A DNA stretch of 64,000 bases from Thermodesulfobacteriota bacterium (GCA_965215275.1 OZ244044.1:256001-320000), one strand, 5' to 3'; counted from the stretch's first letter, positions 12,496 to 64,000 are shown. Notes: a model not told the origin generated them from the letters alone. Numbers and translations are program-made.

Positions 12496-14999
12496 TTAGG
12501 TCTTTATCCGAGACCTTATATTCCTTCTTATCACAACGGATACAGGTATAAGCATCAGTGATGCCAATGCTGTGAGCATATCAGGAACAGCTTCGTTCTG
12601 ATCGGAAAGCACGCATCCTCCTCCACCTCCGCCTTCATCACTACCTGATGTTGGTGGTCTTGGTGGTCTTGGTCTTGGCGGTGGTGGGTCCGTTGGTTCT
12701 GGTGGCGTAGTCGTTACCCTGATAGTAAAGCTCAGCTCATCCGTATCTCCATCTTCATCCGTTACCTTATATGTATAACTGCCAGAAGATACAGCAGTTG
12801 GTGTTCCGCTAAGCACTCTGTCAGCTTCACTGAAAGTAACTCCATCTGGTAAAAGAGGGGAAAGGCTGTAGGTTAATTCTCCATTCCCTGCTGTTGCCTC
12901 AGGCAGTGTTTCCTTTACTGCAGTTCCCGGCACGTAGTTCTTATCTGGTATCGTCCAGCTGTTAAACGTCGGTGTATCACCAGACATATGACCATAGACC
13001 TTAATGTTCCATGAGTGTAAGGTCCCCGTACCTGCAATTGAATTATTAGTTATCTTCAAGGTCCACTCTCCGGCAGGGTCTGTTCCCAGGTGATTAGCTA
13101 AACCAAAACGATGTTCTCTGCCCGTGTACTTAAAGTCGTTTACAGTAAGTGATCCGTCAGATAAATGTGATATTGCATCTGCTGGATATGCCTCAGTGAG
13201 TTTCGACAGGGTACCGTCAGGGGAAGTTATTTCTATATCCAAAAAAGGAAAGAAAGGGTGAGTAAAATTGATACCTATCTCTATAAATTCCGTAAAGACC
13301 TCAGTGTCTTGTATATTGATATCAGGTACTGTCAGTGTGAAGACAGCGGAAACGTCTTCTGCGTTTCCTCCCGTTGTGAAGTCTGGTATAATCGTATTGA
13401 TATTACCCGAGGAAACCGTTACGGGTCTCATTTGCGGTGGAACGTTGGTCCAGTTTTCGGCAAGTTCTACTGCCGCAGCGGCGTCTACCATACCAAAACC
13501 GAACTTTGGATGGTAACGATAATCTTCTGAATCAGAACCATATTGAAGTGCTGTGCTATACCAGTCTGTGTCGACAAAATCTGACCGTTCGTCATTGCGG
13601 GCTGAACCTGCCAGGATAAGTTTCAGGTCCCGCCAGCTAACATCGCTGTTTACCTCCCGTATCAGTGCTGCTACTCCTGAAACGATCGCAGCTGAATTTG
13701 ACGTTCCAGAGAACTCAAAAGTATAACCGTCGTTATTGTTGGTAGTTACAATACCAGAACCCGGTGCACATACCCATAGATTGTATCCCTCTTCTGAAAA
13801 GGGACTCTTAGTGATCTCCCCTATATTAACGATATCCCCTGTATTATCCTGTTTTACTGAACATACGGTAGTTACAGCGTAGTAGTTGGAATACTCATTA
13901 AAATTAGCCTGATCTGATCCTTCATGTCCATCCCCTGCCGCCCATACGTAAAATACTCCTTTACCACCAAATCCTTCTCTTATACCAGTTTCCACTCCTT
14001 CTTCCCACTCCGATGAAGCCTCTGTAAGAACGGGCAGGTCCTTCGGTCCCCAGTTGTTGACCGATACAGCCGTTATATCCTTATTACGGACCATAGCGTC
14101 CTTTGCATTAGCATCACTGAAGTTATCAGCTAAATTATAACTGTAGATGCTTGCCTCAGGTGCTACACCTCTTACTCCAAGGCTGTTATCACCCACTGCT
14201 GCTATAATGCCAGCCACACGTGTACCACGACCACTGAAAGGACTGTACAGATCACCGCTTCCTGAGTAATCATGAGAAAGGGTGGTATCTATGTTATCAG
14301 CAAGGTCCTCATGATCTGTGTCCATACCATGATCTACCACCGCTACGTTAATCCCAGCTCCAAATACATTATCATCCCATACCTCTTCTATATTTATGCT
14401 CATATCTGCTTCAGAAATGTCGATCGTCTGATCACCTAATGTCAGATCACTCCCTGGATATTTCAGATACCACTGACACCCGTATAAGGGATCATTTGGA
14501 TAATTGGTAGTGATAACTGGACAGTCGTTGAATAACTGATTAGAATCAGCGAATGAAACACCTAATTCGTAGGGTGTAGCACCACTGCTTCCCACAATTA
14601 TATAGTACGTTCCACGTCTGAGGCGAGTTTCTATAGTAGCCGTCGCTGAGTTCCTTGATACAGTCACTTCAGCAGTACTTGCTATCAGATAATCATTACT
14701 GTCACATACCTGTAAGCTGTATTCCTGATCATTGGAGAAGGTGAACTTTACACTTATCTCTGCGATAAAAACGTTATCTGTGTTTACCTGTGTCCGAAAG
14801 TAAAGCAGTCCACCGGCATCCTCTAAACTTCCTCTGCGTTTTGAACCATCCAGTCTTAAAGTAGCTTCGACCGCTGCACTGGAATCACAGTTATTAACGC
14901 TGGTCTGACCATATGCACTAACGTTTACAAGGCACAGAAGAAAGAAAAAGGGAATTAATAACTTATGGGGGGGGGTATTACTCTAAACAGGATGTTCAT
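12496..14999 (-). CDS. Paralog 1: kexin-like S8 pseudo-protease + P-domain + Ig-like domain + GGGGC-TM tail; frameshifted at C9
   Basis: ATG 14999 gives MNILFRVIPPPISY*. One extra C gives MNILFRVIPPPHKLLIPFFFLLCLVNVSAYG, and this frame is open into ORF 12496..14667 (checked codon by codon). S8 motifs VAVVDHG, RGTRVAG, WAAGD, GTSNS; P-domain GEWTLKI...LHSW. Confidence 0.88.
14967..14975 (-). repeat. C9 tract (coding strand) in paralog 1 signal region
   Basis: G9 on the + strand. Confidence 0.95.
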
Positions 15000-15008
15000 G
15001 ACCTTTTC

Positions 15009-15038
15009 ATTTTACTTTGTATCCTGACCAAATGTCAA
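15009..15038 (-). promoter_or_regulatory. Sigma70-type promoter of paralog 1
   Basis: TTGACA-18 bp-TAAAAT, 9 nt before the ATG; conserved upstream of paralog 3. Confidence 0.7.
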
Positions 15039-15370
15039 GAATAATTTCTTTTAAGATGTACAAGCGTGGTTCTAGTGGGGTAAGATCATCACCAGGCCAA
15101 ATGTTCAGAGATCAGAATAACCGATCTGCCACATAACGACCTCATTAACCTGCTCTGAAAAATTTTTTGAGTGACTTCAGACCCAAAAAGGACTAAAATA
15201 GAAAAGGCAGACATTTAAATCTATAAAGGACGAAAGACAGCCGGGTACACAGAGGCAAGGTCCCTGCTGATCTTTCCTGATCATTAAAGCATATTATTCC
15301 CATGTTTTAACGTGCTTTAATGACCGACGACTGAACTGATAGAACGTACAGGGAGAGCTATAACGATAAA

Positions 15371-16081: not shown

Positions 16082-16083
16082 AG

Positions 16084-16434: not shown

Positions 16435-16435
16435 A

Positions 16436-16819: not shown

Positions 16820-16830
16820 AGGGTTTTACT

Positions 16831-17364: not shown

Positions 17365-17365
17365 A

Positions 17366-17842: not shown

Positions 17843-19652
17843 AGTCCAGAAGACAGCACCTGAAACCGGTGCAGAGGGTATAAAATGGGACCTGAACGAC
17901 CTTTACAAAGGAACCAAGGACCTCAGCATAGAACGCGACCTGAAAAAGATCCGCAAAAGTGCCGAGCGATTCGAAAAAAGGTACAGGAACGAAATACGGT
18001 CTGCCAAGCTCGATCCGGAAACATTACTGAAAGCGGTCAGGGAACTGGAGAAAATATCAGAAGCTGCCGGTAAACTGCTGTCCTACGCTCATCTTCTTTT
18101 TGCAGGTGATACGAACAGTTCTGAACATGGTGCCTTTTTGCAGTCCATGCAGGAAAAGATCACCGATATCAGGAAAAAGCTGATCTTTTTTGAACTTGAG
18201 TGGATCAGGCTCCCTGAAAGGACTGCGGGGAAAATACTTAAAGACGGCAGGCTTTCAGGCTATGCCCATTTCCTCAGACATTACAGAAAATATAAACCGC
18301 ACTCACTTTCCGAACCCGAGGAAAAGATAGTTGCAGAAAAGGACAATACGGGATCAGTGGCGTTCTGCAGGCTGTTCGATGAAGTAATAAACAACATTGA
18401 GTTCAGGATAAGACTGGACGGCAAAGTCCAAACCCTGACCGAGACGCAGGTCCTAGCACTTTTATATCACCCTGACAGAAAAACGAGAAGGTCCGCTTCT
18501 GTAAGCCTTACAAAAGGACTTGAGAACAACTCTCACGTCCTGACCTATATATTCAATACCTTGCTGAACGACCATTCGATCAACGACCGTTTACGCTCCT
18601 ACCCTCATATAATGGCGCACAGGAACCTGAACAACGAGATCGACGAGCAGACCGTCAGCACGCTGCTGCGGTCGTGTGTAGAAAGTTACGGCACGGTTGA
18701 AGAATATTACGACCTGAAGAAAGAACTTCTCGGTCTGAACAAAATGTACGACTATGACAGATACGCTCCCATATCGTCCGAAGATAAGACCATTAAATAT
18801 GGTGAGGCAAAGAACGTCATACTGGAAGCTTTTGGTGATTTTTCACCAAAGATGGCACGAATTGCAAAAACATTTTTTGATAAAAACTGGATAGACGCAG
18901 AGCTGAGAGAAGGTAAAAGAGGCGGTGCTTTCAGCCACGGCACCGTTCCCAGCGTCCATCCGTACGTGCTCGTTAACTACTCCGGAAAGATGAGGGACGT
19001 TATGACGGTAGCCCATGAACTGGGGCACGGCGTTCATCAGTATCTTTCAAGGAAACGGGGATATTTTCAGGCAAATACCCCGCTCACCACGGCAGAGACC
19101 GCAAGCGTTTTTGCCGAGATGCTCGTTTTTGACAGACTGATAAAGAACGAAAAAAGCAAGAAAGCAAAACTATCACTTATGTGCGGGAAACTTGAAGACG
19201 CCTTTGCCACGGTTTTCAGACAGGTGGTCATGACAAAGTTCGAAGAAGCACTTCATACAAAAAGACGTGAAGAAGGAGAACTTACAAAAGAAGCGATCAA
19301 CGAGTTGTGGATAGAGGCAAATAAGGCCATGTTCGGTAACTCTGTCGAGCTTACGGAAAACTACAATATATGGTGGATGTATATACCGCACTTTATCCAT
19401 TCTCCCTTTTACTGCTATGCCTATTCGTTCGGTGAACTGTTAGTTCTTGCCCTTTATCAAAAATACCTGCAGGAGGGAAGAACATTCGTTCCAAAATACC
19501 TGGATATGCTGTCCGCCGGTGGAAGTGAACCTCCGGAAAAGATCATTGAAAAAGTAGGAGTGAACATCAAAGACCCCGATTTCTGGCAGGGAGGATTGAA
19601 CCTGTTGAGCGGTATGGTCAAAGAGACCACAGAACTGGCACGAACACTATGA
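17835..19652 (+). CDS. pepF: M3B oligoendopeptidase F
   Basis: WDLNDLY, GKRGGAF, HELGHGVH zinc motif, AETASVFAE, FYCYAYSFG. Confidence 0.9.
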   Translation: MSKVQKTAPETGAEGIKWDLNDLYKGTKDLSIERDLKKIRKSAERFEKRYRNEIRSAKLDPETLLKAVRELEKISEAAGKLLSYAHLLFAGDTNSSEHGAFLQSMQEKITDIRKKLIFFELEWIRLPERTAGKILKDGRLSGYAHFLRHYRKYKPHSLSEPEEKIVAEKDNTGSVAFCRLFDEVINNIEFRIRLDGKVQTLTETQVLALLYHPDRKTRRSASVSLTKGLENNSHVLTYIFNTLLNDHSINDRLRSYPHIMAHRNLNNEIDEQTVSTLLRSCVESYGTVEEYYDLKKELLGLNKMYDYDRYAPISSEDKTIKYGEAKNVILEAFGDFSPKMARIAKTFFDKNWIDAELREGKRGGAFSHGTVPSVHPYVLVNYSGKMRDVMTVAHELGHGVHQYLSRKRGYFQANTPLTTAETASVFAEMLVFDRLIKNEKSKKAKLSLMCGKLEDAFATVFRQVVMTKFEEALHTKRREEGELTKEAINELWIEANKAMFGNSVELTENYNIWWMYIPHFIHSPFYCYAYSFGELLVLALYQKYLQEGRTFVPKYLDMLSAGGSEPPEKIIEKVGVNIKDPDFWQGGLNLLSGMVKETTELARTL

Positions 19653-19809
19653 GGTAAGGGTCGTCATAGACGTTTTAAACATGGATATTATCATGATTTA
19701 ACAGCTACTGTTTCTGGAAACTTCAATAAGACTATTAAAAAAGAAGTGGAAGAAGGACTGGAGGATTTTATAAAAGATATAAACGAACTAAATAAAGGAA
19801 ATCCAAATA

Positions 19810-25126: not shown

Positions 25127-25891
25127 ATGAACGATAAATACACGCTTATTAATAGCAACTGTTTTGAATATCTTCAAAAAATCGAAGAAAACTCAATTGA
25201 CTGCATAATAACAGACCCACCGTACTTTCTTTCAAACGATGGAATTACATGTAAGAGCGGTAAGATGGTTTCTGTCAATAAGGGAAAATGGGATAAAAGA
25301 AAGGATTATGATGAAATTTACTCATTTAATCTTAATTGGATAGAAGAAAGTTACAGGATTCTGAAACCAGGTGGAACTTTATGGGTTAGTGGAACTTACC
25401 ACAATATATACACTATAGGTTCAATCATTGATAGTATAGAGGACTTTAGGATACTCAATAATATAACTTGGGTAAAAACCTCACCTCCCCCAAATCTCTC
25501 TTGTAGATTTTTTACTCACTCAACAGAAACAATTTTGTGGGTTAGAAAGGGTAAAAAAACAAAACATTATTTCAATTATGATTTGATGAAGGAGTTGAAT
25601 AAAGGAAAACAGATGAAAGATGTTTGGATAGTTGGCAGCCCTAAAAAAACAGAAAAAGATTTAGGAAAGCACCCAACACAAAAACCTGAGGAATTGATAG
25701 AAAGAATAATTCTATCCTCTACACAAGAAAATGATTTAGTTCTTGATATGTTTAATGGAAGTGGAACTACTGGTGTTGTTAGTATTAGAAATAATAGAAG
25801 ATATCTTGGTATAGAATTGGATGAAGAATATTATCAACTTTCAAAACAAAGGTTAGAAAGAGAAACAAGTGAATCAAGATTAGATGTTTGA
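25127..25891 (+). CDS. DpnA-like DNA methyltransferase (beta class)
   Basis: ITDPPYFLSNDGI...VSVNKGKWD, HPTQKP, VLDMFNGSGTTG. Confidence 0.9.
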   Translation: MNDKYTLINSNCFEYLQKIEENSIDCIITDPPYFLSNDGITCKSGKMVSVNKGKWDKRKDYDEIYSFNLNWIEESYRILKPGGTLWVSGTYHNIYTIGSIIDSIEDFRILNNITWVKTSPPPNLSCRFFTHSTETILWVRKGKKTKHYFNYDLMKELNKGKQMKDVWIVGSPKKTEKDLGKHPTQKPEELIERIILSSTQENDLVLDMFNGSGTTGVVSIRNNRRYLGIELDEEYYQLSKQRLERETSESRLDV

Positions 25892-26555
25892 TTCCTTTGG
25901 AAATTCTAATGTCAGACCTGTACTAAAATGAGTTGATAGTAAAAGAGGACTTATACATGATATAAATAAAGTACTACAAAACCCAAAAAGTATGTAGAAC
26001 CCTTTTTTGGTGGTGGTTTGGTTTATTTTTAAACACTTGGGGTTAAATACAAAAATAGATCAATTATTAATAACGTAAACAAAGATTTAGTAGATTTATA
26101 TAGAAATATAAAAACTTCTCCAATTCTTCTTAACCGCACTTATTTTAATGGATTATATAGAGTTAATAGTAAAGGGTATGTGAATATCCCTAAAGGAAAT
26201 TATAAAAACCCAAGAATAGTTGAAAACATAAAAAATACTGAATTTGATAGTATCCTTGAAATAGGAAACTTGGTTTATTTTGACCTTCCCTATCACCCTT
26301 TAAATGAAACATCATCATTCACTTCATATAGTAGTTCTTTCGGAAAAGGAGAACAGATTAGGTTGAGAAATTATTTTGAATAACTTAACAATAAAGGAGT
26401 TTATGTAATATTATCTAATTACTCTTTACCCTTTATAAGAGAAATTTACAATGAGTTTAATGTAGTGAAAATTTATTTATAATAGGAACATAAGCAATAA
26501 ATCCGGCAAAAGAGGAAAAGTACAGGAGTATCTCGTAGTTGGAAACCAAATAAAA
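25884..26555 (+). pseudogene. dam: Dam/DpnM-like adenine methyltransferase pseudogene
   Basis: RPVLK*VDSK (from PFLKWAGGK), YVEPFFGGG, FNGLYRVNSKG, VYFDLPY (DPPY mutated); several stops, frameshifts and deletions. Confidence 0.85.
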
Positions 26556-26560
26556 ATAAC

Positions 26561-27484
26561 ATGAAGCAATTAAAGTTTTATTTTGAAAGAGGATTGCATA
26601 ATCCAAGTGAGGTTTTTAACTATTTTGTTGAAAATATTTTACCTATTAATAGAACTTGGGACTATTTTATCAATTGGGATAAAGTATTTTCAAATATTTG
26701 TAAATACAAGATTGAACTAAACATTTTAAACTCGCTATGTGGTTCCGAAAATTTCGACGAAGAGTTAAAGTATATACTAAAAAATTATCCTGAGGTTATT
26801 AAAGTTTTCCCAACTCTTCTTGGAGTTAGAGAAAGAAAAATTGATGTTTTAGATGATAGTGTTTTATCTGAATTTAACTTTAAGGAGTCTAACTTTAAAG
26901 AATTTGATTTTAGAAAAACCAATTTATTCAATTCCGATTTAGAAAACCTAATTGTTTTTTTTGAGGAAAGTGGCTTAAAAAACTTAGTCATAAAAGGTGG
27001 CTTAACAAATATTAAAGATTATACATATGGGGTAGAAGTTGGTTTGGATACTAATGGTAGGAAGAATAGAAGTGGTTCGATAATGGAAAACCTCGTTAAT
27101 GATTTACTACGGAAGGTATATAATTTAGATGAAAATAATTATATTACTCAATGCACTTCATTAAAAACTAAAAAGAAATGGAGGTTAGAATTACCAGTTG
27201 ATAAATCTTCAAGAAAACCAGACTTTGTGGTTAATAGAAACAACAAACTTTACTGGATTGAAACTAATTTTTATTCTGGAGGAGGGTCTAAATTAAACGC
27301 AGTTTGTGGAAACCATAAATCATTATTTGACTTTTGTAAATCTAATGGCGTTGAATTTATTTGGATTACTGATGGTGAAGGATGGAAAACTACATTGACT
27401 ACTCTTGAAGAAACATTTTTACATAATGATTATATTTTTAACTTAAGTATGATTAAGGATGGTGTTTTAAATTCGATTTGGTAA
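26561..27484 (+). CDS. DpnII/MboI-family type II restriction endonuclease
   Basis: GVEVGLDTNGRKNRSG, PDFVV, IETNFYSGGGSKL, FIWITDG.GW. Confidence 0.9.
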   Translation: MKQLKFYFERGLHNPSEVFNYFVENILPINRTWDYFINWDKVFSNICKYKIELNILNSLCGSENFDEELKYILKNYPEVIKVFPTLLGVRERKIDVLDDSVLSEFNFKESNFKEFDFRKTNLFNSDLENLIVFFEESGLKNLVIKGGLTNIKDYTYGVEVGLDTNGRKNRSGSIMENLVNDLLRKVYNLDENNYITQCTSLKTKKKWRLELPVDKSSRKPDFVVNRNNKLYWIETNFYSGGGSKLNAVCGNHKSLFDFCKSNGVEFIWITDGEGWKTTLTTLEETFLHNDYIFNLSMIKDGVLNSIW

Positions 27485-27528
27485 GTCAGTATAGTTCAAT
27501 ATCAGTTTAAAAAACCTGTTTTACAAGT

Positions 27529-27605
27529 CGGGATGTGGCGCAGTCTGGTAGCGCACTCGTCTGGGGGGCGAGCGGTCGCTGGTTCAAATCCAGTCATCCC
27601 GACCA
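27529..27605 (+). tRNA. tRNA-Pro (GGG)
   Basis: CGGGATG/CATCCCG acceptor stem, anticodon loop CTGGGGG, GGTTCAAATCC T-arm, encoded CCA; 77 nt. Confidence 0.97.
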
Positions 27606-27771
27606 TTCATTTTTGGCAAAAACTCCCAACTTTAAAAATGGGAATTATATACTATTTGCCCCAAATTAAATAATTTATAATCATGGAATAAATTGGTAAT
27701 TGAACTTATGTTTATGAGTGATTTAACTTGTTTTTTTACAACCAAATTCTTAGCGTTTTTTTTCAAATCGA

Positions 27772-29151
27772 CTACCAGACTTCTTTAATTCTTTCTTTAA
27801 ATTCGTAGTTGTTTTTCAGTATTGCGTCAATTCTTGACTTATCAATATCAAGTCGCTGTAGAAGATGCAATTTAAATATGGCTTTCATTTGGTATATATA
27901 GTATAACAAATCTTTACCTTTAGCTGCTTTTTCTTCTAGAGATTTGTCATAATGTATAAGGTAATTTCTTGTATCTACAATTTTGCTAATAAGTTCATTT
28001 CGTTCCTTACTGTTTCCAAACTTATCTTTATACGGTTCAATAATTCTGTTAATTCTTGTACGCAAGCTAATTTCATTAGCATAACACAGACTATCTTTTA
28101 ACCATTTTTTATGTTGGTCAGGACAATTTGACAACAATTCATATAAGAGGTTTTTAAACTCACATTCACTCATCTTTGTCTTCTTTGTCTCATCCGAAGT
28201 TCGACGATGATATATTTCTAATGCGTGAACCAAAGCCAGAAATTTACCTTCCAAATATCTATAACTTTCAGTTACAACAGAAAGATAGAGATTGATAGAA
28301 GGCCTTATCTCCACATATGCATCAAACCACTTATTTAAAATTCCTTCCATATCATCCTTAATATCACCAAATCCAAACAACGCCTTCCTCGGGTCAATTT
28401 CCGGGCGATTTGGAGAAAATGGCAAACTTTTATAATATATATGAATAGGGTTTGTCCCTTTTTGTCTCTCTAATGTGGCAGATACATCACTAATTGTCAC
28501 TGTTTTATCAATAGTAAAACACAATAAGTAAGTAATTTTATAAATTATTTCTCTGAAATCTTGGAATTCTCTTTCTTTAGTAGATGATAATTTTATATAC
28601 GCTTTTCGTATAGTCTTGGTTTCTACAGTTACAGTATGTGAAAAACTTGGTGGTGTATAGCTAAAACCTATATGTAATTTGAAACCGTCCATTAATTCAT
28701 ATTCTATGTTAGTCGTAGTTTTCTGGTCATCGCTGTGGATAAAATTAATGCCATTTTTTCCAAGCCAATCATCTAAACCTTCTACGGAAAACATCACGGA
28801 ATTGAATTTAACTGACTCATTTTGCTCATATATAAAACCACAAAATGCTTTGTCTACATGGACTAATGACTTGAAAGGAATACTATCTGGTCCTATTTGA
28901 GGAATATCAGTACAATCTTCTAATGTTATAGGTTCATCTTTCTCCACTTGACCAACGACCCTGTAAATATTAGTATTTTCTAGACCCCATCTTTTACCTA
29001 AACTAACAGCTATATCTTCATCAAGCAGACCCATGAGTTCTAGTTCAATTTTCCCTCCATCGTATATTCTTAGAGTTCCAGGAATTTTACGGTCAGAATT
29101 TTCAGGAAGCCAAAAGTAGCCATCCCTTTCATATTTTTCATTTATTCTCAC
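27772..29151 (-). CDS. ApeA-type HEPN protein (putative anti-phage RNase)
   Basis: N-terminal GYFWLPE...IPGTL typical of the ApeA NTD; ALEIYHR; HEPN motif RNYLIH (R-x4-H). Confidence 0.8.
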   Translation of the reverse strand: MRINEKYERDGYFWLPENSDRKIPGTLRIYDGGKIELELMGLLDEDIAVSLGKRWGLENTNIYRVVGQVEKDEPITLEDCTDIPQIGPDSIPFKSLVHVDKAFCGFIYEQNESVKFNSVMFSVEGLDDWLGKNGINFIHSDDQKTTTNIEYELMDGFKLHIGFSYTPPSFSHTVTVETKTIRKAYIKLSSTKEREFQDFREIIYKITYLLCFTIDKTVTISDVSATLERQKGTNPIHIYYKSLPFSPNRPEIDPRKALFGFGDIKDDMEGILNKWFDAYVEIRPSINLYLSVVTESYRYLEGKFLALVHALEIYHRRTSDETKKTKMSECEFKNLLYELLSNCPDQHKKWLKDSLCYANEISLRTRINRIIEPYKDKFGNSKERNELISKIVDTRNYLIHYDKSLEEKAAKGKDLLYYIYQMKAIFKLHLLQRLDIDKSRIDAILKNNYEFKERIKEVW

Positions 29152-33884: not shown

Positions 33885-33913
33885 TTGACATTACAGTGGA
33901 ACAGAAGTAAAAT
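33885..33913 (+). promoter_or_regulatory. Distal promoter P1 of paralog 2
   Basis: TTGACA-17 bp-TAAAAT, 9 nt before ATG 33923. Confidence 0.7.
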
Positions 33914-33950
33914 ATCGCTATCATGAATATAAAAGAGCGTATCTCTGCTA

Positions 33951-33959
33951 CCCCCCCCC
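33951..33959 (+). repeat. First C9 tract of paralog 2
   Basis: Counted directly. Confidence 0.95.
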
Positions 33960-33967
33960 ATATATAC

Positions 33968-33996
33968 TTGACCTTTCAGCCGGAGATAAGCACAAT
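33968..33996 (+). promoter_or_regulatory. Proximal promoter-like P2 of paralog 2
   Basis: TTGACC-17 bp-CACAAT, 9 nt before ATG 34006; same geometry upstream of paralog 4. Confidence 0.45.
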
Positions 33997-34005
33997 AGTA
34001 CGATA

Positions 34006-36509
34006 ATGCTGAAGTTTCTACCCCCCCCCATAAATTATTAATTCCCTTTTTCTTTTTTCTGTGCCTTGTAAACGTTGGTGCATATGGTCAGACCAGCATT
34101 AATAACTGTGACTCCAGTGCAGCGGTCGAAGCTACTTTAAGACTGGATGGGTCAAAACGCGGAGGAAGTTTAGAGGATGCCGGTGGACTGCTTTACTTTC
34201 GGACACAGGTAAACACAGATAACATTTTTATTGCAGAGATAAGTGTAACCTTCACCTTCTCCAATGATCTGGGATACAGTTTACAGTTGTGTGACAGCAA
34301 TGATGATCTGATAGCAAGTACTACTGAAGTGACTTTGCTAGGGAACGCAGCGATAGCCACAATAAAAACCCGCCTCAGACGAGGAACGTACTATATAATT
34401 GTGGGAAGCAGTGGTGCTACACCCTACGAATTAGGTGTTTCATTTGCTGATTCTCAACAATTATTCAACGACTGTTCAGTTATCACTACCAATTTTCCAA
34501 ATGATCCCTTATACGGCTGTCAGTGGTATCTGAAATATCCAGGAAGTGATCTGACATTAGGCAATAAGCCAATAATCACTGGAGACAGAACAAATATAGA
34601 TATAAAAATAGAAGAGGTATGGGATGATAGTGTATTTGGAGCTGGGATTAACGTAGCGGTGGTAGATCATGGTATGGACACAGATCATGAGGACCTTGCT
34701 GACAACGTGGATACCGCACTTTCTCATGATTACTCCGGGAACAGCGACCTATACAGTCCTTCAAGTGGTCGTGGTACACGTGTAGCTGGCATTATAGCAG
34801 CAGTTGGTGATAACAGCCTTGGAGTAAGAGGTGTAGCACCTCAGGCAGGCATCTACAGTTATAATTTAGCTGGTAACTTCAGTGATACTAACGCAAAGGA
34901 CGCCATGGTCCGTAATATGGATACAACGGCTGTATCTGTCAACAACTGGGGACCGAAGGACCTTCCTGTTCTTACAGAGGCTTCATCAGAGTGGGAAGAA
35001 GGAGTGGAAACGGGTATAAGAGAAGGTTTTGGTGGTAAAGGTGTGTTTTACGTATGGGCGGCAGGGGATGGACATGAAGGATCAGATCAGGCTAATTTTA
35101 ATGAGTATTCCAGCTACTACGCAGTAACTACCGTATGTTCAGCAGAGGTCGTAAAGCTCGGTAATGATTCGAAGTTTGTTACCAAGAGTTCTTTTTCAGA
35201 AGAGGGAGTAAATCTATGGGTATGTGCACCGGGTTCTGATATTGTAACTACCGACAATAACGATGGTTATACTTTTGAGTTCCCTGGAACATCAAATTCA
35301 GTTGCTGTCGTTTCAGGAATAGCAGCACTGATAAGAGAGGTAAACAGTGATATTAGCTGGAGGGACCTGAAACTGATACTGGCAGGTTCAGCTCGCCATA
35401 CTCTCAGCAATACTAATCATCTCTTTTTCGACGACCAAAACTGGAGGACAGAAACATTTAAATACGGTTCTGATTCAGAGCAGTATTCTTACAATCCAAA
35501 GTTCGGTTTTGGCATGGTAGACGCCGCTGCGGCAGTAGAACTTGCCGAAAATTGGACCAATGTTCCACCGCCAATGAGACCCGTGACGGTTTCCTCGGGT
35601 AATATCAATACGGTTATCCCAGACTTCAGAACGGGAAACGCAGAAGATGTTTCCGCTGTTTTCAAACTGACCGTACCTGATATAGATATACCAGATACTG
35701 AGGTATTTACAGAATTTATAGAGATAAATCTCAATTTCACTCACCCTTTCTTTCCTTTTTTAGATATAGAAATAACCTCCCCTGACGGTACCCTGTCGAA
35801 ACTCACTGAGGCATATCCAGCAGATGCAATATCACATTTATCTGACAGATCTCTTACTATAGACGACTTTGACTACACGGGCAGAGATCATCGTTTTGGT
35901 TTAGCTAAACATTTAGGAGAAAACCCTGCTGGAGAGTGGACTTTAAAGATAACTAATAATTCACCTGCAGGTACGGGGACCTTACACTCATGGAACATTA
36001 AGGTCTATGGTCATATGTCTGGTGAGACGCCGACGTTTAACAACTGGACCATACCTGATAAGAACTACGTGCCGGGAACTGCAATAAAGGAAACACTGCC
36101 TGAGGCAACAGCAGGGAATGGAGAATTAACCTACAGCCTTTCCCCTCTTTTACCAGATGGAGTTACTTTCAGTGAAGCTGACAGAGTGCTTAGCGGAACA
36201 CCAACTGCTGTATCTTCTGGCAGTTATACATATACCGTAACGGATGAAGATGGAGATAAGGATGAGCTGAGCTTTACTATCAGGGTAACAACTACGCCTC
36301 CAGGACCAACGGACCCACCACCAACAACAGGACCAAGACCACGAAGACCGACATCATCAGGTAGTGATGGAGGCGGAGGTGGAGGAGGATGCGTGATATC
36401 TGATCAGAGCGAAGCCGTTCCTGATATGCTCACAGCAGTGGCATCTCTGATGCTTATACCTGTATCCGTTGTTATCAGAAGAAAGATAAGGTCTCGGATA
36501 AAGACCTGA
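34006..36509 (+). CDS. Paralog 2: kexin-like S8 pseudo-protease + P-domain + Ig-like domain + GGGGC-TM tail; frameshifted at C9
   Basis: ATG 34006 gives MLKFLPPPINY*. One extra C gives MLKFLPPPHKLLIPFFFFLCLVNVGAYG, in frame with ORF 34287..36509. Near-identical to paralog 1. Confidence 0.88.
34021..34029 (+). repeat. Second C9 tract of paralog 2
   Basis: Counted directly. Confidence 0.95.
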
Positions 36510-48513: not shown

Positions 48514-48518
48514 TCCAT

Positions 48519-51255: not shown

Positions 51256-52512
51256 ATGCCGGAGAGGAAACTAATAACAAAGGAAAAATACCAGAACAAG
51301 TTGATGGCTATTTTTTCGACTCAGGAAGGTGATTTGATAGAGAAGGTCAATCGTAACAACGATAGGTTAAATGCAAAGGAGATTACAGAAGAACAGTGGT
51401 TGATCGAAGATCGCACTCTGAAGGCAGAAGGTGCAGATATCAGAAGCACAAAAGATCTTTGGGAACAGCTTGACAGCTATGTGATCAACACTGGAGATTA
51501 TAGTCCGGTATTTGCTGATCATCATAAAATGCCCGTTCCATCGTTTGATAAAGCATTTTCTGAGATGATAGGCACTCCATCTCAGAAAGGAAAGGTCAAT
51601 TCATATGAGATGAGTGAACGTGACTGGATAACGCTTTTGAGGGGTGGGGGTATGGCAGTTCCGTTACAGGCAGCTGTAGGCGATATGTCGACTGGCGATG
51701 CTGTTGCAGAAGCAACTAACACGTCAGAGGTTGTTGAATACCTGATGAATCCTATTACTATCTTAGATTTTATCACTGTCCGGATGATAAATACGAGACA
51801 GATACGTATGATCCGAGAAGATACTACTAAAGCAGATTTTGGTCTGACCGCCAAGGTAGCAACCAGAGATTGTGTGTCTACTGGTGCTTTCTATCGTTTC
51901 AATGAGGAGTTGATGCTGGATGACAATAGAGCTCACTTCCTTCCATATGTAAGAACAAGGTTGCCGATGGAGTTTCGCCTTCAGGTCGAAACGTGGTTAT
52001 ATCGTGGAGCTGGTACAAGTAACACTCCTCTTGGTTTTACTGCTGAAACAGGTAGATCTACCTTGACTGACCTTGCACACAGTGGAGCTTCTGTGCAAAA
52101 ACGGCTTGAAGCCTTTGAGGATGCTCGTGTAAAAATCTTTACAGATGCAAAAACACGTGCCAACTTGTTCATTGTGCATCCATCACATTTTTCCGAGTTT
52201 TTAACTCTGAAAAACAGTGATAATAGGTATCTGTTTGCTATAAACACAGTGAAAACACAGAGTGGAAAACAGATCCCAACAGTTTGGGGTGTACCTATTG
52301 TAGAATCTTTCGCAGCTGAGAAGAATAAATTCACGGCTGTGGATATGGGGTTTGTATCCCAGTATCTTCTGAAGGGAAGCACAAGGCTCCGTGAAGGTCA
52401 GATAGATGACGACCTGCTGAAAAACAAATGGACGATCATAATTGACTCCTATATGAATCAGTATACCGTTCGTCCTAAAGCGGTCTGCACATGGGGACAG
52501 GCGACTTCTTAA
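51256..52512 (+). CDS. HK97-type phage major capsid protein
   Basis: Helical N-terminus, GGMAVP, EELMLD, G.GTSNTPLG, LKNSDNRYL, TVWGVPIVES, VRPKAV; RBS GGAGGT. Confidence 0.75.
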   Translation: MPERKLITKEKYQNKLMAIFSTQEGDLIEKVNRNNDRLNAKEITEEQWLIEDRTLKAEGADIRSTKDLWEQLDSYVINTGDYSPVFADHHKMPVPSFDKAFSEMIGTPSQKGKVNSYEMSERDWITLLRGGGMAVPLQAAVGDMSTGDAVAEATNTSEVVEYLMNPITILDFITVRMINTRQIRMIREDTTKADFGLTAKVATRDCVSTGAFYRFNEELMLDDNRAHFLPYVRTRLPMEFRLQVETWLYRGAGTSNTPLGFTAETGRSTLTDLAHSGASVQKRLEAFEDARVKIFTDAKTRANLFIVHPSHFSEFLTLKNSDNRYLFAINTVKTQSGKQIPTVWGVPIVESFAAEKNKFTAVDMGFVSQYLLKGSTRLREGQIDDDLLKNKWTIIIDSYMNQYTVRPKAVCTWGQATS

Positions 52513-57700: not shown

Positions 57701-59469
57701 GTCTATCAGATTATTATTGCTGTTACACAAATGTATACCGTATTCGTGTGAACTGTGTCCGAGATCAAGACTGTCAAAAATTATACCTATATCTATGGTA
57801 CTAAGAGGGTCTGTTAAGTATGCCTTATAGTAATGTAGTCCTCCACCACTAGCGAAACTTCCACTTTGTCGCGTGCCGCCCAACCACAATCTTCTAATAT
57901 TACTTGCACTGGAAGCACCTTCACAATAATAAGAAGGATCAGGATCAGTTTTTGTAGCTCTAAGTTCACTGTAGCTTATAGAATCATCGCCTCCCACAAC
58001 GATATAGTGTGTTCCCGATCTTACGGTAGCTGTAATACTTTCACGACTTACGCCAAACTCATCACTTGTACCAGTAGTACTGTCTATCAGACCATCATTG
58101 CTGTCACACAACTCTAAACTGTATTGGACCCCACCAGAACCTTGGCCGAAGGTTATATCTATATCTAATTCTGTAAGAAGGTCCGTTACTTCTATCTCAT
58201 AGTAACGAAATTCAGCACCAGTATTGAAACTTCCACTTTGCTCCATTCCGTCAAGCGTCAGGATAGTTGAACTTTGCCCTGAGTTGCAATTATTAGAACC
58301 AGCTCTGATATAGTAGTCTGTAGAATAATATTTATTGGTATAGCCTTCCAAAACGATATAGTACGTTCCTTGTTCGACAGTAGTTGTAACATGCCGACCT
58401 CTCCATGTACCGGTGGAACTGGCTATTATATTATTATTGCTGTCACACAAAACTAAACTGACTGCGGAAGAACTGACATCAACTGTTGAGGTCGTAAATA
58501 CAATTACTTTGCTAAGAGGGTCTCTTACACTTACTTGATAATAGTGCAGTTTACCAGCTCTTAAACTTTCATGTCGTCCATGTCCGTCCAACCACAATCT
58601 TCCAATATTACTTGTACTGGATGCACCTTCACAATAATCGGAATAATCACTTGTTGTAGCTGTAAGTCCAGAGTAGTCTATACTATCATCACTTCCCACA
58701 ACGATATAGTACGTTCCCGATCTTATGATAGCTGTAATATTCTCAGGACTTGCAACACCACTACTTGTACCAGTAGCACTGTCTATTAAAGCATCATCGC
58801 TGTCACATAAAACTAAAACGTAGTCGACACCATTACCAGTACCAAAAGTTATATCTATATCTAATTTTATACCAGGGTCTGTTACATCTATCTGATAGTA
58901 ATGCAGTTCACCATTAGCATTGAGACTTCCACTTTTTGAATCTCCGCCAACCTCCAGCGTATCTTCGGTACCTTCACTGGCATCGCAATATTCGGAAGGA
59001 GCAGGAGCATCTTCATTAGCACTGACATAGTAGGCTGCACTATACTGGCTATTGATATAGCCTTCAAAAACGATATAGTATGTTCCCGGCCCGACCGTAG
59101 CTGTAACACGCCGACTTTTCCCCGTACCTGTAGAACTAGTTATCAAATTATTATTGCTGTCACACAACTCTAAACTTACTGTGGTACTATAAATATAACT
59201 AAGTGAAAATCCCGCCGTTATAGTTACTTTGCTAAGAGGATTTGTTACATCTATCTGATAGTAACGTATTCCACCCCAGCCATTGAAATCGCCATTGAAA
59301 GTTCCACTTTGCTCCGTTCCCTCAAACCCCAATATAGCTTCGATACTTGCACTGGAGTCACAATTATTACTCTGTCCATATGCCTCAATGGATACAAAGC
59401 ATAGAAGAAAAAAGACAAAGAGAATTACTAATTTAGATGGGGGGGGGTAGAATCTAAATAAATGTTCAT
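54752..59469 (-). CDS. Paralog 3: 5 N-terminal PPC-like repeats + S8 pseudo-protease + P-domain + 4 Ig-like repeats + GGGGC-TM tail; frameshifted at C9
   Basis: ATG 59469 gives MNIYLDSTPPHLN*. One extra C gives MNIYLDSTPPPSKLVILFVFFLLCFVSIEAYG, in frame with ORF 54752..59332. Confidence 0.88.
54960..56060 (-). repeat. Four tandem Ig-like (He_PIG-type) repeats, 279-bp period
   Basis: GGACTCCTGTCTGCTTCTACCGTGATA at 55218, 55497 and 55776; LP.GLSF...R.LSGTP motif. Confidence 0.9.
59439..59447 (-). repeat. C9 tract (coding strand) in paralog 3 signal region
   Basis: G9 on the + strand. Confidence 0.95.
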
Positions 59470-59479
59470 AACCTGTTTT

Positions 59480-59509
59480 ATTCTACTTTGTATCCTGACC
59501 GAATGTCAA
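59480..59509 (-). promoter_or_regulatory. Sigma70-type promoter of paralog 3
   Basis: TTGACA-18 bp-TAGAAT, 10 nt before the ATG; near-identical to the paralog 1 promoter. Confidence 0.7.
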
Positions 59510-60130: not shown

Positions 60131-60172
60131 ACCTGAATATTCAATATTATAGATAACTCTCTCAAACTAAAT

Positions 60173-61612
60173 ATGAATTATCGCTCAGTCATAAACGACT
60201 TCAAGAGCAAGAAAGTACTTGTGATCGGAGATCTGATCCTGGATAAATACATCTCCGGCACAAGCGGCCGTATATCTCCCGAGGCTCCCGTGCCTGTGAT
60301 CAGTCATAACGGGACCGAATATCAGCTGGGCGGGGCTTCGAACGTTGCAAAGAATATCATAAACCTGGGCGCTGAAACACATCTGATCGGAACGGCCGGT
60401 AAGGATAACAATGGAAGGACCATAACAAAGCTGCTTGGCAAAGCAGGTATAAACCCGGAAAACATTATTAAGGACAGTAACAAACCGACAACGCTCAAGA
60501 CGAGGATCATTTCAGGTAACCAGCAGCTTCTGCGAATTGACGAAGAGCGTACCTCTGAGATCTCCTCCGATATACAAGACCAGCTGCTGGAGATGATACA
60601 AAAGGTCATTCGTACCAGCAACCCGGACGCAGTAATAATATCGGATTACAATAAAGGAACGGTAACGGATAAGATCTGCAGAGTGGCGATAAAAATGGCT
60701 GGAAGGTCCGGTGCTTTCATAGCCGTTGATCCAAAAGGGAAAGATTTCAGAAAGTACAGGGGAGCAAACGTTATAACCCCGAACAGAAATGAATCCGAGA
60801 CCGTCTATGGTAAGCCGATATCAGATAATAACGTACTGGTCAAAGCACTAAAGAAAATAAAAAGCGATACAGGAGCGGAAGGGGTCGTGATCACAAAAGG
60901 AAGTGAAGGGGTAAGTTTTATAAAAGGGAATAAGGTCTTTAACGTTCCAACTGCCGAAAAAGACGTATACGACGTAACGGGAGCAGGAGATACATTTATC
61001 TCCGCTTTTACCCTGTCGGTCCTGTGCTCCGGTTCATGGACGACCGCCGCAAAGATAGCCAATGCAGCGTCTTCCGTCGTAATTGACCACCTGGGAACGG
61101 GTTCACTTACCCGGGACCAGCTGGTGAACAGGCTCTCTTTTCCGGAAAAGATACAGAATATAAGGGATCTGATCCCTGTTCTGAACGAAAGAAGAAAAAA
61201 AGGAGAAAAGGTCGTCTTTACCAACGGATGCTTTGACATCCCTCACGCCGGACACGTCAAGTTCTTAAGGGAATCCAGAAAATACGGCGACCTGCTGGTC
61301 GTAGCGCTCAACAGTGACAGATCGGTAAGAAAATTAAAGGGAGAAAACAGACCTTTCTTCTCAGAGAACGACAGAGCTGCAATAGTATCTGAGTTCACAT
61401 GTGTGGACTACGTCATCATCTTTGACGAAGATACGCCCTTGAGCACGATAAAAAAATTAAGGCCGGACGTTATTACAAAGGGAGCCGACTATAAGAAAGA
61501 GCAGATAGTTGGCAAGGACCTTGTGGAAAGCTGCGGTGGACAGGTAAGGATAGTCCCGCTTGAACAAAACAGGTCGACCTCGTACTTTGCAGACAAGATC
61601 AGAAAAGATTAA
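60173..61612 (+). CDS. hldE: Bifunctional heptose-7-P kinase / heptose-1-P adenylyltransferase
   Basis: RISPEAPVP, DVTGAGDT, TNGCFDI.HAGH, KGADY. Confidence 0.93.
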   Translation: MNYRSVINDFKSKKVLVIGDLILDKYISGTSGRISPEAPVPVISHNGTEYQLGGASNVAKNIINLGAETHLIGTAGKDNNGRTITKLLGKAGINPENIIKDSNKPTTLKTRIISGNQQLLRIDEERTSEISSDIQDQLLEMIQKVIRTSNPDAVIISDYNKGTVTDKICRVAIKMAGRSGAFIAVDPKGKDFRKYRGANVITPNRNESETVYGKPISDNNVLVKALKKIKSDTGAEGVVITKGSEGVSFIKGNKVFNVPTAEKDVYDVTGAGDTFISAFTLSVLCSGSWTTAAKIANAASSVVIDHLGTGSLTRDQLVNRLSFPEKIQNIRDLIPVLNERRKKGEKVVFTNGCFDIPHAGHVKFLRESRKYGDLLVVALNSDRSVRKLKGENRPFFSENDRAAIVSEFTCVDYVIIFDEDTPLSTIKKLRPDVITKGADYKKEQIVGKDLVESCGGQVRIVPLEQNRSTSYFADKIRKD

Positions 61613-61627
61613 CCGGCTGATCCAATA

Positions 61628-62536
61628 TCAAGGCTCAATACTTGAAAGCTTTGAGAACTCGGCGTATCTGGCGTTTATATCCTCTCTTTTGACGTTTGCC
61701 AACCGGTCCACACTGAAACTTTCCACTGTAAAGGACGCCATGACGCTGCCGTAGAAAACGGCTTTTTTATAATCCATGTTCCCTGCTGATCCGCAACCGG
61801 CCATATAGCCCATAAAACCGCCGGCAAACGTATCCCCGGCACCCGTCGGATCAAAGACGTCCTCGAGCGGATAGCCTGGAGCACAGAATATACCTTTACC
61901 GTTGAACATCAGCGCTCCATACTCGCCTCTTTTGATCACAACGGTCCTTGGACCCATGTTCATTATCTTACGTGCTGCCTTAGTTATTATAGGTTCACCT
62001 GACAGTTCCCGTGCTTCCGAGTCGTTGATCATAAGAATATCAACGAAGCTTAAAAGTGATCTAAGCTTATCGGGCTTGTTCTCTATCCAGAAGTTCATCG
62101 TGTCGCACGCCACTATCTTAGGTCTTTTCATCTGCTCAAGTACCGACATCTGTATAACGGGGTCGATGTTTGCCAGGAACACGTACTCGGCTTCCTGCAT
62201 GTTATCAGGTACGACCGGTCTGAACGTCTCGAACACGTTCAGATGAGTGGACAACGTCTTTGCTTCGGAAAGGTCGTATCCATATTCACCTTCCCACCTG
62301 AACGTAAATCCGTCCTTTTCCTTCTTTACACCATCCACGTTTATCTCCTTCTGCCTCAACAGATCAAGATGTCCTTCAGGAAAATCCCCTCCGACCACTG
62401 CCACTACGTTGACCCCGGTAAAGTGGCTTGCAGACAGAGAAAAATACGAGGCGGAACCGCCAAGCACGTTACTTACCTCTCCAAACGGTGTTTTAACGGA
62501 ATCAAGTGCCATTGAACCAACAACAAGTAAACTCAT
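61628..62536 (-). CDS. PfkB-family sugar/nucleoside kinase
   Basis: GGSASY, DPTGAGDTFAGG. Confidence 0.9.
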   Translation of the reverse strand: MSLLVVGSMALDSVKTPFGEVSNVLGGSASYFSLSASHFTGVNVVAVVGGDFPEGHLDLLRQKEINVDGVKKEKDGFTFRWEGEYGYDLSEAKTLSTHLNVFETFRPVVPDNMQEAEYVFLANIDPVIQMSVLEQMKRPKIVACDTMNFWIENKPDKLRSLLSFVDILMINDSEARELSGEPIITKAARKIMNMGPRTVVIKRGEYGALMFNGKGIFCAPGYPLEDVFDPTGAGDTFAGGFMGYMAGCGSAGNMDYKKAVFYGSVMASFTVESFSVDRLANVKREDINARYAEFSKLSSIEP

Positions 62537-63390
62537 TATAAATATCTCCCCACCAACAGTTCTACTTTATCCCTATCGGCTTTTTTGATCTCACTTCGTG
62601 GCGTTATAATGGAATCTTTCAGCGACGAACCACACTTACAGTTCATCTTATCGGGTATTGACACGGTCAGTCTCTTGATTATAAGTTTTGCCATATCAAC
62701 GTTTTTCCTAAGCGTGTCAATAATGTCACCAACTGCAACTTCAGCGTGTTCATCATGCCAGCAGTCATAATCCGTCGAAAGGGCCATCGTGGAATAGCAG
62801 ATCTCCGCCTCCCTTGCCAGTTTGACCTCCGGCATGTTCGTCATACCGATAACGTCCACATTCCACTGCCTGTACAACTCACTTTCTCCCTTGGTGGAGA
62901 ACTGCGGACCCTCGATACAGATATAAGTCCCTCCCATATGTGCCGTAGCACCTGAATCAACGGCTGCTTCGAACAGGATCTTTGACAGATGGGAACAGAC
63001 GGGGTCGGCCATTGAAACATGTGCAACGATGCCGCTGCCGAAAAAAGTGGATTCCCTTTTCCTGGTCAGATCAATGAACTGAGTGGGAACTACGATGTTC
63101 CCAGGTGCTATCTCATCCTTCATGCTCCCGACCGCACTTACTGATATTATCCACTTCACGTCCAGCATTTTCATTGCATAGACGTTTGCACGGTAGTTAA
63201 TGTCCGAAGGCATGATCTTATGCCCTTTTCCGTGACGCGGCAGGAAAAAAAGTTCTGCGTCCCCGAGAAAGCCCCTTATTATCTGTCCAGATGGGTCTCC
63301 CCAAGGCGTTGAGAGGTTTATGGTCTCAACGTTCTTCAATCCGTCCATCTCGTACAGACCACTTCCGCCAATTACACCTATCTTGAACAT
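62536..63390 (-). CDS. mtnP: S-methyl-5'-thioadenosine phosphorylase
   Basis: GGSGLY, PRHG, EGPQFST, GMT..PE..LAREAE, TDYDCW. Confidence 0.93.
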   Translation of the reverse strand: MFKIGVIGGSGLYEMDGLKNVETINLSTPWGDPSGQIIRGFLGDAELFFLPRHGKGHKIMPSDINYRANVYAMKMLDVKWIISVSAVGSMKDEIAPGNIVVPTQFIDLTRKRESTFFGSGIVAHVSMADPVCSHLSKILFEAAVDSGATAHMGGTYICIEGPQFSTKGESELYRQWNVDVIGMTNMPEVKLAREAEICYSTMALSTDYDCWHDEHAEVAVGDIIDTLRKNVDMAKLIIKRLTVSIPDKMNCKCGSSLKDSIITPRSEIKKADRDKVELLVGRYL

Positions 63391-63608
63391 AGTTTTATTG
63401 AAAAACGTACAATTCTCCTTCTTTGCCCCTGTGCATAACCTGAAGCAGGCAGAAGCGTCTTAACAAAAATAGCAAGGTTATCAATAAACAGGTACTTTAT
63501 CAACATTTATTAAAAAAAGGGAACTATATATTTAAACAAAAAAAGAAAATGATCCGGACATCCTGATGTGACCTCTGTCATTAAATAAAAAAACGCTGTT
63601 CGTTATAT

Positions 63609-63715
63609 TTGACATTGCAGCAGAACAGAAGTAGAGTATAATCATAATGCGTATCCCTGTTATCCCCCCCCCCCACCACCATATACTTGACCTTTCAACT
63701 GAATATAGCTATCCT
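63609..63715 (+). promoter_or_regulatory. Tandem promoter cassettes of paralog 4
   Basis: TTGACA-17-TAGAGT-9 nt-ATG 63647; TTGACC-17-TATCCT-9 nt-ATG 63725. Confidence 0.6.
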
Positions 63716-64000
63716 GTAACTACAATGTCAGGTTCATCCCCCCCCCCATCAATGCAGTAGTCCAGTAAGCAGTTCCTGCTGTAACGGCAGACGGTTCATA
63801 TTTCCCTTTGTCTTTTTTCTTCTGTGCATAATGGTAATAGCTGCAAAAGGGCAGAGCAGTCTGGAAAAAACATTATCTGAATGCAGAGGTATCAGTGCAG
63901 ACACAGAAGATCCGTTATACGGATGTCAGTGGCATCTGAAGAACACTGGGCAGCTTAGTTTTTCCGGAAAGGCAGTAACAGCAGGAGAAGATATAAACAT
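63647..64000 (+). CDS. Paralog 4, 5' part only; frameshifted at the second tract (C10)
   Basis: The downstream frame reads RRFIFPFVFFLLCIMVIAAKG...DPLYGCQWHLKNTG...AGEDIN, homologous to the other paralogs. The ATG 63647/63725 frame stops at TAG 63758 unless the tract is C9 or C12. Confidence 0.8.
63664..63674 (+). repeat. First tract of paralog 4 (C11)
   Basis: Counted directly. Confidence 0.95.
63738..63747 (+). repeat. Second tract of paralog 4 (C10)
   Basis: Counted directly. Confidence 0.95.

Follow-up and report, generated by a model that had tools for sequence, protein, structure and literature searches.

This 64,000-nucleotide (nt) stretch of DNA from a Thermodesulfobacteriota bacterium (GCA_965215275.1, OZ244044.1:256001-320000; the whole stretch is called the window) raises the question why four protease-like genes are each out of frame at a run of cytosines shortly after the start codon. 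A first-pass annotation had read them as a family of surface S8 pseudo-proteases whose expression is set ON or OFF by slipped-strand mispairing. The present analysis favours this reading. The four genes belong to a catalytically dead clade of 49 genes, in which a C8-C13 run sets the frame and slipped-strand mispairing would switch each gene heritably. Judged from the sequences, we put the probability of this at about three in four. The finding itself is real and no artefact. Most likely the system is a large slipped-strand phase variation of known kind whose form is new and unusually elaborate.

C runs, reading frames and proteins in the window

Exactly seven G/C runs of at least 7 nt occur in the window, and every one is at least 9 long. 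A base-composition model predicts 0.1 runs of at least 9. The count agrees with the first-pass annotation, in which six C tracts and the G11 run of a lipoprotein gene were the only runs of this length. The runs are:

2091-2101, G11 run, lipoprotein gene
14967-14975, minus strand, C9 run (G9 on the plus strand), 24 nt past ATG 14999, in the signal-peptide coding region of paralog 1
33951-33959, plus strand, upstream C9 run (tract 1), within the leader open reading frame (ORF) of paralog 2
34021-34029, plus strand, C9 run (tract 2), 15 nt past the inner ATG 34006 of paralog 2
59439-59447, minus strand, C9 run (G9 on the plus strand), 22 nt past ATG 59469 of paralog 3
63664-63674, plus strand, upstream C11 run (tract 1) of paralog 4
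63738-63747, plus strand, C10 run (tract 2), 13 nt past the inner ATG 63725 of paralog 4

Four of these runs lie 13-24 nt past the ATG of a kexin/furin-like gene, as had been described:

12496..14999, minus strand, paralog 1, kexin-like pseudo-protease gene, OFF at C9
34006..36509, plus strand, paralog 2, kexin-like pseudo-protease gene, OFF at C9
54752..59469, minus strand, paralog 3, long pseudo-protease gene with repeated N-terminal modules and four He_PIG stretches, OFF at C9
63725..64000, plus strand, paralog 4, cut off at the window end, OFF at C10

For a frame test each run was exchanged in silico for other lengths, and the ORF was re-read from the ATG. Paralog 1, read from ATG 14999 on the minus strand, stops after 14 codons with C9; it is open for 834 codons with C10 and for 833 with C7. 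From ATG 34006 (plus strand) paralog 2 stops after 11 codons with C9 and is open for 834 codons with C10. The corresponding values for paralog 3, read from ATG 59469 (minus strand), are 13 codons with C9 and 1572 with C10. Paralog 4 stops after 11 codons from ATG 63725 (plus strand) with C10, and with C9 or C12 it is open to the window end; in the whole genome it extends 1377 codons past its run. The test thus bears out the lengths given before, C10 for paralogs 1-3 and C9 or C12 for paralog 4. It also agrees with the claim that the three complete genes are intact apart from the run, since 834, 834 and 1572 codons are open after the change of one base. The mechanical ORF list masks these frames, as already remarked in the first-pass annotation, because it starts paralogs 1-3 downstream at GTG 14667, TTG 34287 and TTG 59332. 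The in-frame readings open with a typical signal peptide. In paralog 1 it reads MNILFRVIPPPHKLLIPFFFLLCLVNVSAYGQT, with prolines encoded by the run.

For the three complete copies Pfam reported Peptidase_S8 (PF00082; expectation values (E) of 2.4e-33, 8.2e-30 and 5.6e-29), P_proprotein (PF01483) and one to four immunoglobulin (Ig)-like He_PIG stretches per copy. The closest solved structures were furin (E 1.6e-37) and kexin (E 4e-34). The catalytic columns were read from the furin alignment (D153/H194/N295/S368):

furin columns D/H/N/S, paralogs 1 and 2: D/R/D/S
furin columns D/H/N/S, paralog 3: N/gap/D/A
furin columns D/H/N/S, paralog 4: S/T/D/V

Hence, the His is replaced in paralogs 1 and 2, the Asp, His and Ser in paralogs 3 and 4, and the oxyanion Asn in all four. 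With the S8 domain kept and catalytic columns replaced in every paralog, the label pseudo-protease was appropriate.

The C-terminus of all four proteins consists of GGGGG(G)C followed by a hydrophobic stretch and a tail rich in RRK. By eye alone this layout resembles catalogued sorting signals such as MYXO-CTERM and GlyGly-CTERM; NCBIfam returned 0 matches at E up to 0.1 for the final 84 residues of paralog 1. No credible Pfam match was obtained for the N-terminal 170 residues. An AlphaFold model of this head is a beta-sandwich, moderately confident with a mean predicted local distance difference test score (pLDDT) of 62.6. Foldseek returned weak matches of the head (E ~4e-4, TM-score at most 0.44) to the Tk-SP jelly roll, collagenase collagen-binding domains, pre-peptidase C-terminal domains and GOLD. 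In paralog 3 the head module is repeated several times. These features support secreted, membrane-tailed proteins that are predicted to be pseudo-proteases. Because a signal peptide and the C-terminal tail are present, the proteins are probably exposed on the cell surface, where the Gly-Cys membrane tail would anchor them.

The run-bearing clade in the genome

The genome is a single closed contig of 1,990,023 bp, of which the window covers positions 256001-320000. It was scanned for G/C runs, a check already suggested in the first-pass annotation, with the following result:

G/C runs of length 6: 78 observed, 227 expected
G/C runs of length 7: 0 observed, 48 expected
G/C runs of length 8: 6 observed, 10 expected
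G/C runs of length 9 or more: 133 observed, 2.8 expected

The distribution is bimodal genome-wide. A/T runs longer than 9 are absent from the genome, with about 10 expected. The genome appears to be purged of homopolymers of intermediate length. Slippage shapes it strongly, as the avoidance of G/C runs of 6-7 makes plain. The longest homopolymer of the genome is a C26 run at 1401695-1401720, 8 nt past the ATG of a short ORF.

By tblastn 57 S8 loci of this family were enumerated in the genome. A C8-C13 run just past the start was found in 49 of them, and eight are without a 5' run. The Asp/His/Ser triad is retained in none of the 49 run-bearing loci and in seven of the eight run-less loci; the eighth, with the triad lost, contains an internal run and a stop. 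The run-bearing genes amount to 147.5 kb or 7.4% of the genome. A frame state (ON, +1 or -1) could be assigned to 48 of the 49: 11 are ON, 25 need the loss of one base, 12 need the gain of one, and one is unassigned. Since all switched copies are catalytically dead and the unswitched relatives are intact, the variable trait is suggested to be a binding or masking surface and not an enzyme.

In a quick maximum-likelihood tree the 49 run-bearing genes form one side of a branch with a value of 99 in the Shimodaira-Hasegawa-like approximate likelihood ratio test (SH-aLRT), and the outgroup is placed among the run-less members. Therefore, the run was most likely gained once. The nearest outside homologs (~40% identity) come from metagenome-assembled genomes (MAGs) of Dehalococcoidia; D/H/N/S is intact in them, and their start regions are free of runs. 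The residues lost differ by subclade (DRDS, DRDA/DRNA, SHDA, S[ST]D[FV]), hence catalysis was given up several times, and later. The S8 part of the family was not found in the 20 relatives searched. C/G 9-mers, counted as overlapping matches, are common in several genomes of the same order (288 in G005, 207 in G011 and 108 in G007) and absent from others. A metagenome scan with a 15-letter pattern, which is too short, yielded 119 chance loci, 0 of them with an adjoining C run.

A strand bias was also observed: 41 of the 49 run-bearing genes are on the plus strand, in both replichores. The cumulative GC skew peaks near 180 kb and is lowest near 1.0-1.24 Mb. As the excess is found in both replichores, co-orientation with replication does not explain it.

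The ratio of nonsynonymous to synonymous substitution rates (dN/dS) was determined for 45 pairs among 10 close paralogs, 9 of them OFF. The median was 0.44. By region, it fell to 0.14 in the S8 core and to 0.24-0.29 in the P and Ig domains, and it reached 0.65-0.75 over the N-terminal 200 residues. This is the pattern of a conserved scaffold with a fast-evolving head and not of neutral decay. The first-pass annotation had named relaxed selection, as in true pseudogenes, as the opposite outcome; the OFF copies are under purifying selection and have no such pattern. Bimodal runs, 49 gated paralogs in mixed states and purifying selection are together the signature of selected hypermutable tracts.

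With regard to changes of run length, assembled contigs, paralog pairs and gene calls were compared. The contigs bridged the runs of paralog 2 but not that of paralog 1, and one from a divergent strain (X6) stops at 33949, right at the upstream run of paralog 2. Five paralog pairs have at most 10 mismatches in 350 flanking nt, and four of these differ in run length; one pair with 0 flanking mismatches has C10 vs C9. At genome position 1482259 an in-frame gene encodes 686 residues with a signal peptide. Its orthologs in two other assemblies (95% identical) are called at 640 residues, starting at residue 61 and without a signal peptide. The gene appears to be ON in this genome and OFF in the two others, as far as the states can be read from the start choices of gene callers, on which this comparison rests rather than on DNA. 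Run lengths that differ between paralogs with identical flanks and an ortholog state that differs are indirect evidence that the DNA length changes. Between the 1482259 protein and its ortholog P0055 the oxyanion patch also differs (GNRGDNRG vs GDGDKNSNLADH), and an 11-residue indel is located in the Pro-rich linker. These patchwork differences look like patchy gene conversion.

Slipped-strand mispairing at the signal-peptide run would toggle each gene ON and OFF, independently and heritably. The run length would change at a high rate within populations, and cells would then display varying subsets of the family. For the ON/OFF repertoire proposed in the first-pass annotation all structural predictions and genome statistics hold, while the switching itself is what we infer from them. 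The roles suggested there, with the proteins as surface adhesins or decoys under host or phage selection, would be putative ones.

Promoters and the leader reading frame

At 46 of the 49 loci the first ATG is preceded by a TTGACA-N17/18-TAnnnT motif, whose -10 box ends at a distance of 6-10 nt, in most cases 9, from this ATG. In promoter scans of the window the sites of the family genes were the top-scoring matches, listed here together with a weaker inner site of paralog 4:

15009..15038, minus strand, promoter-like TTGACA-18-TAAAAT (11/12), -10 box ending 9 nt before ATG 14999
33885..33913, plus strand, promoter-like TTGACA-17-TAAAAT (11/12), -10 box ending 9 nt before the leader ATG 33923
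59480..59509, minus strand, promoter-like TTGACA-18-TAGAAT (11/12), 10 nt before ATG 59469
63609..63637, plus strand, promoter-like TTGACA-17-TAGAGT (10/12), 9 nt before the leader ATG 63647
63687..63715, plus strand, weaker inner promoter-like TTGACC-17-TATCCT (9/12), 9 nt before the inner ATG 63725

Shine-Dalgarno sites are otherwise in use in this genome: a motif precedes 36% of first ATGs, compared with 12% for a control window, and CCTCC occurs in the 16S tail. The family starts have no such motif. The mRNAs of the family are predicted to be leaderless or nearly so.

Two runs, 59-63 nt apart, are present at 28 of the 49 loci, including paralogs 2 and 4. The order of this cassette is promoter, ATG, 17-55 nt, a C9-C13 run and then 59-63 nt to the second run. 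Because the strong promoter and an ATG lie upstream of run 1, this run falls in a short leader ORF. The upstream runs at 33951 and 63664 had been taken for mere further tracts in the first-pass annotation; they belong to a conserved leader ORF. For paralog 2 it is:

33923..34008, plus strand, leader ORF of paralog 2, ending at C9 in a TAA that overlaps the inner ATG (TAATG)

In paralog 4, C11 puts the leader ATG 63647 into the same frame as the inner ATG. The same geometry was observed at all 28 loci. One frame of run 1 stays open and continues into that of the inner ATG, so that leader and gene are fused. In one or both of the other frames a stop is found from 5 nt upstream to 8 nt downstream of the inner ATG; it takes the form TAA-N5-ATG at 22 of the dual-run loci, paralog 4 among them, and TAATG in paralog 2. 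In the third frame a stop lies ~34 nt upstream of the inner ATG at 25 loci. This geometry is kept across cassette types of diverged sequence. The promoter and leader cassette DNA was not found in the 20 relatives.

At present run 1 is in the state with a stop near the ATG at 16 of the 28 loci, fused at eight and stopped early at four. All five dual loci with run 2 in frame have a permissive run 1, which is not significant, as early states are few. In the assembly, paralog 2 has its leader stop on the ATG and is OFF, and paralog 4 is fused and OFF. At three further loci (genome positions 421717, 633539 and 652456) the leader start is joined at a single C9 run to the signal-peptide body. These fusions match what is expected from a deletion of ~60 nt between two runs. 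They indicate that the leader ATG can serve as a start.

A terminator or attenuator hairpin after tract 1 was considered and ruled out. The scan of the window revealed no terminator-like site between the runs and just weak AU-rich hairpins of -2 to -15 kcal/mol; no consensus RNA structure was found between the leader run and the gene. Thus, attenuation is unlikely, and the conserved geometry, with either a fused frame or a stop at the ATG, favours translational coupling. The run of the leader ORF may tentatively be regarded as a second, translational layer of the switch, for which we see slightly less than even odds. Translation of dual-run genes would start at the leader ATG and cross the first C run. 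With one class of run 1 lengths the leader would be fused to the gene; with the second it would stop by the inner ATG and allow re-initiation without a ribosome-binding site; with the third translation would usually abort ~34 nt upstream. Combined with run 2, up to nine states per gene would result. The conserved run-bearing leader ORF points to translational switching in two steps, with no ribosome-binding site involved. It is a more speculative and on balance doubtful proposal that each dual-run gene acts as a two-digit counter of base three, that the cells wear a graded, combinatorial coat of dead furins, and that this is the largest homopolymer-driven surface-variation system described in a bacterium.

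Alternative readings and comparison with known systems

Several observations weigh against heritable switching of a run-gated clade. The link between run and loss of catalysis is that of one clade and represents few evolutionary events rather than 49. The frame states are skewed (25 need -1 vs 12 that need +1 and 11 ON), and pure random switching predicts otherwise. Of four ortholog comparisons with other assemblies, three gave the same inferred state (one ON/ON, two OFF/OFF). Contigs of two samples (X1 and X2) share C9/C9 at paralog 2; they were built separately and span both runs gap-free over 6.5 kb, and one is possibly the source sample. MutS (868 aa) and MutL (617 aa) are both present and intact, so that high slippage would not be due to lost mismatch repair; missing repair as its driver was ruled out. 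Furthermore, the TTGACC conserved behind tract 1 might be read as a -35 box belonging to an inner promoter instead of as a part of the leader layer.

Some of these observations would also fit non-heritable slippage. The runs would then be slippery sites for RNA polymerase or for ribosomal frameshifting, and all copies would be expressed constitutively at a low level that depends on run length, with no mutational switching. Proline CCC-C is slippery for +1 ribosomal frameshifting, and the commonest state, one C too many (25/49), would be rescued by a +1 slip on CCC-C. The C9/C9 common to both samples and the intact MutS and MutL point in the same direction. In contrast, copies that need +1 (12/49, including paralogs 1-3) and copies in frame (11/49) exist as well. 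The run length varies at identical flanks, the inferred state of one ortholog differs between assemblies, and the genome-wide scarcity of G/C runs of 6-7 fits mutational instability of the DNA. We therefore consider this explanation improbable as a replacement for mutational switching. Expression from slippery sites and mutational switching are compatible and not exclusive.

It is still less probable, to a degree that makes it a marginal explanation, that sequencing or assembly errors in homopolymers produced the out-of-frame states and that all genes are truly in frame. Such errors are plausible for long reads and a single closed contig of an uncultured organism, and paralogs 1-3 are each short by exactly one C. 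However, errors would be needed both ways, with 25 runs one too long and 12 one too short. As a control, A/T runs of at least 8 were examined: 216 of 272 are located within open frames of 150 codons or more, and no more than 6 of the 272 look frameshift-like. The two separately built contigs reproduce C9/C9 at paralog 2. Moreover, among the distinct proteins from other assemblies that match run-bearing loci best, eight of nine are also 5'-truncated and one has a full N-terminus; among those matching run-less loci best, four of six have the full N-terminus with signal peptide. Errors would also leave unexplained why the runs exist and why length 7 is lacking. Gene callers systematically truncate run-bearing genes, therefore metagenome catalogues under-report such secreted proteins.

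Finally, decay of an expanded protease family, with the C runs merely as break sites, is hardly credible: the triad is kept in 0/49 copies, 37/49 are out of frame and a few members are truncated (e.g. at genome positions 1118537, 627310 and 1649137), but the OFF copies are open for 834-1572 codons and break at the run every time and nowhere else, dN/dS is low across the S8 core, the P domain and the Ig domains, and 46/49 have kept the promoter, the start codon, the signal peptide and the C-terminal tail.

Heritable switching by slipped-strand mispairing thus remains the preferred reading, and it can be compared with described systems. Phase variation by slipping repeats is textbook knowledge for a few host-adapted pathogens. 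With contingency loci in general the family shares a homopolymer of slip length in the 5' coding region, a frame set by run length alone and an over-representation of tracts. Here the small genome of an uncultured bacterium displays this logic on a much larger scale.

NalP of Neisseria meningitidis is reported to be a subtilisin-like S8 autotransporter whose expression is set by a homopolymeric tract in the coding sequence (PMC3723659). On this description, both are S8-family surface proteins gated by an in-gene homopolymer. In contrast, NalP is an active protease, an autotransporter and a single gene, and the family here has no triad and 49 copies. An autotransporter beta-barrel was not found among Pfam and NCBIfam domains of the family proteins; they have the Gly-Cys membrane tail instead.

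The Opa proteins of Neisseria are a surface multigene family, each copy of which is switched by a pentamer repeat in the signal-peptide coding region. There are about a dozen copies or fewer, the protein is a small beta-barrel, and no tract in a leader ORF is known. Many paralogs, independent repeats in the signal peptide and combinatorial expression are common to both systems. They differ in the repeat, a pentamer in Opa vs a homopolymer here, and in the leader-ORF tract, which is not known for Opa.

Campylobacter genomes have roughly 30 tracts and no MutS/MutL, and mismatch-repair deficiency boosts slippage in Campylobacter and Helicobacter. In contrast, the present genome has 133 tracts of at least 9 in 2 Mb with intact MutS/MutL, and one family holds most of the tracts. 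For the Campylobacter jejuni phasome, poly-G homopolymers are reported to gate surface-related genes genome-wide (PMC6321876).

The pil1 locus of Streptococcus gallolyticus is comparable to the leader ORF. A repeat in the leader peptide is reported to set leader translation and thereby downstream expression in an attenuation-like manner (PMC3894217). The common feature, on that account, is a repeat in a short leader ORF upstream of a surface gene, which is met at 28 loci here. In contrast to the attenuation-like mechanism described there for pil1, the cassette here has no terminator-like site, a stop-at-ATG geometry and a second run in the gene.

Kexin and furin (S8B) share the order of an S8 catalytic domain followed by a P domain (PDB 1p8j, 2id4). 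The family here differs by the missing triad and oxyanion Asn and by the additional beta-sandwich head, He_PIG and membrane tail. NCBIfam also gave a weak match to the model of Clostridioides difficile CspC (NF040808; E 4.6e-4), which falls well short of the cut-off. CspC, an S8 pseudoprotease, serves as a germinant receptor; it is intracellular or spore-associated, single-copy and not known to be phase-variable. The likeness consists in a subtilase fold without triad, used in binding or signalling rather than cleavage.

In the literature, as covered by full texts without their supplements, no description of this family was found, nor of homopolymer phase variation in such symbionts. The system is distinct from the known ones in its scale, in a switch clade made up of pseudo-enzymes only, in intact mismatch repair, in the two-run cassette with a stop at the ATG and in its uncultured lineage.

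The neighbours of the family genes in the window are housekeeping genes (transketolase, LepA, alternative complex III, HldE). A small defence cluster at 25127-29151 consists of an N6/N4 DNA methylase and a DpnII-type restriction enzyme; the other strand encodes its third member, an ApeA-like HEPN protein. The ORF at 51256-52512, with housekeeping genes on one side and paralog 3 on the other, contains a phage capsid domain (E 2.6e-14) and may be a prophage remnant.

Runs were also found in genes outside the S8 family. In the window this applies to:

2067..2607, plus strand, lipoprotein gene with the lipobox LISGC, G11 at 2091-2101, 24 nt past the ATG

From ATG 2067 this gene is open at G10 only. 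With G11 it is in frame from TTG 2080, and the charged start of the signal peptide is lost. It is probably the same kind of switch as in the pseudo-protease family. No ortholog was found in the 20 relatives, save one 37% match.

Three DNA methyltransferase genes with a DPPFN motif (genome positions 828763, 834720 and 1814694) carry C9-C13 runs 13-14 nt past the ATG and are all out of frame; they are candidates for phase-variable methylases (phasevarions). A run-bearing methyltransferase gene is present in the genome as three paralogs with C10, C9 and C9. Its only relatives among 40 genomes are ~45% identical and have no G/C run of at least 6, so that no variation in run length was seen among relatives. 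Furthermore, the genes of a TPR-like family have an internal C/G9-11 run, placed ~230-300 nt in (478 nt at 1914729) and at a position common to the copies. Its loci are at 19539, 20737, 31545, 1068992, 1899949, 1901573, 1914729 and 1964984; some are in frame and some out of frame.

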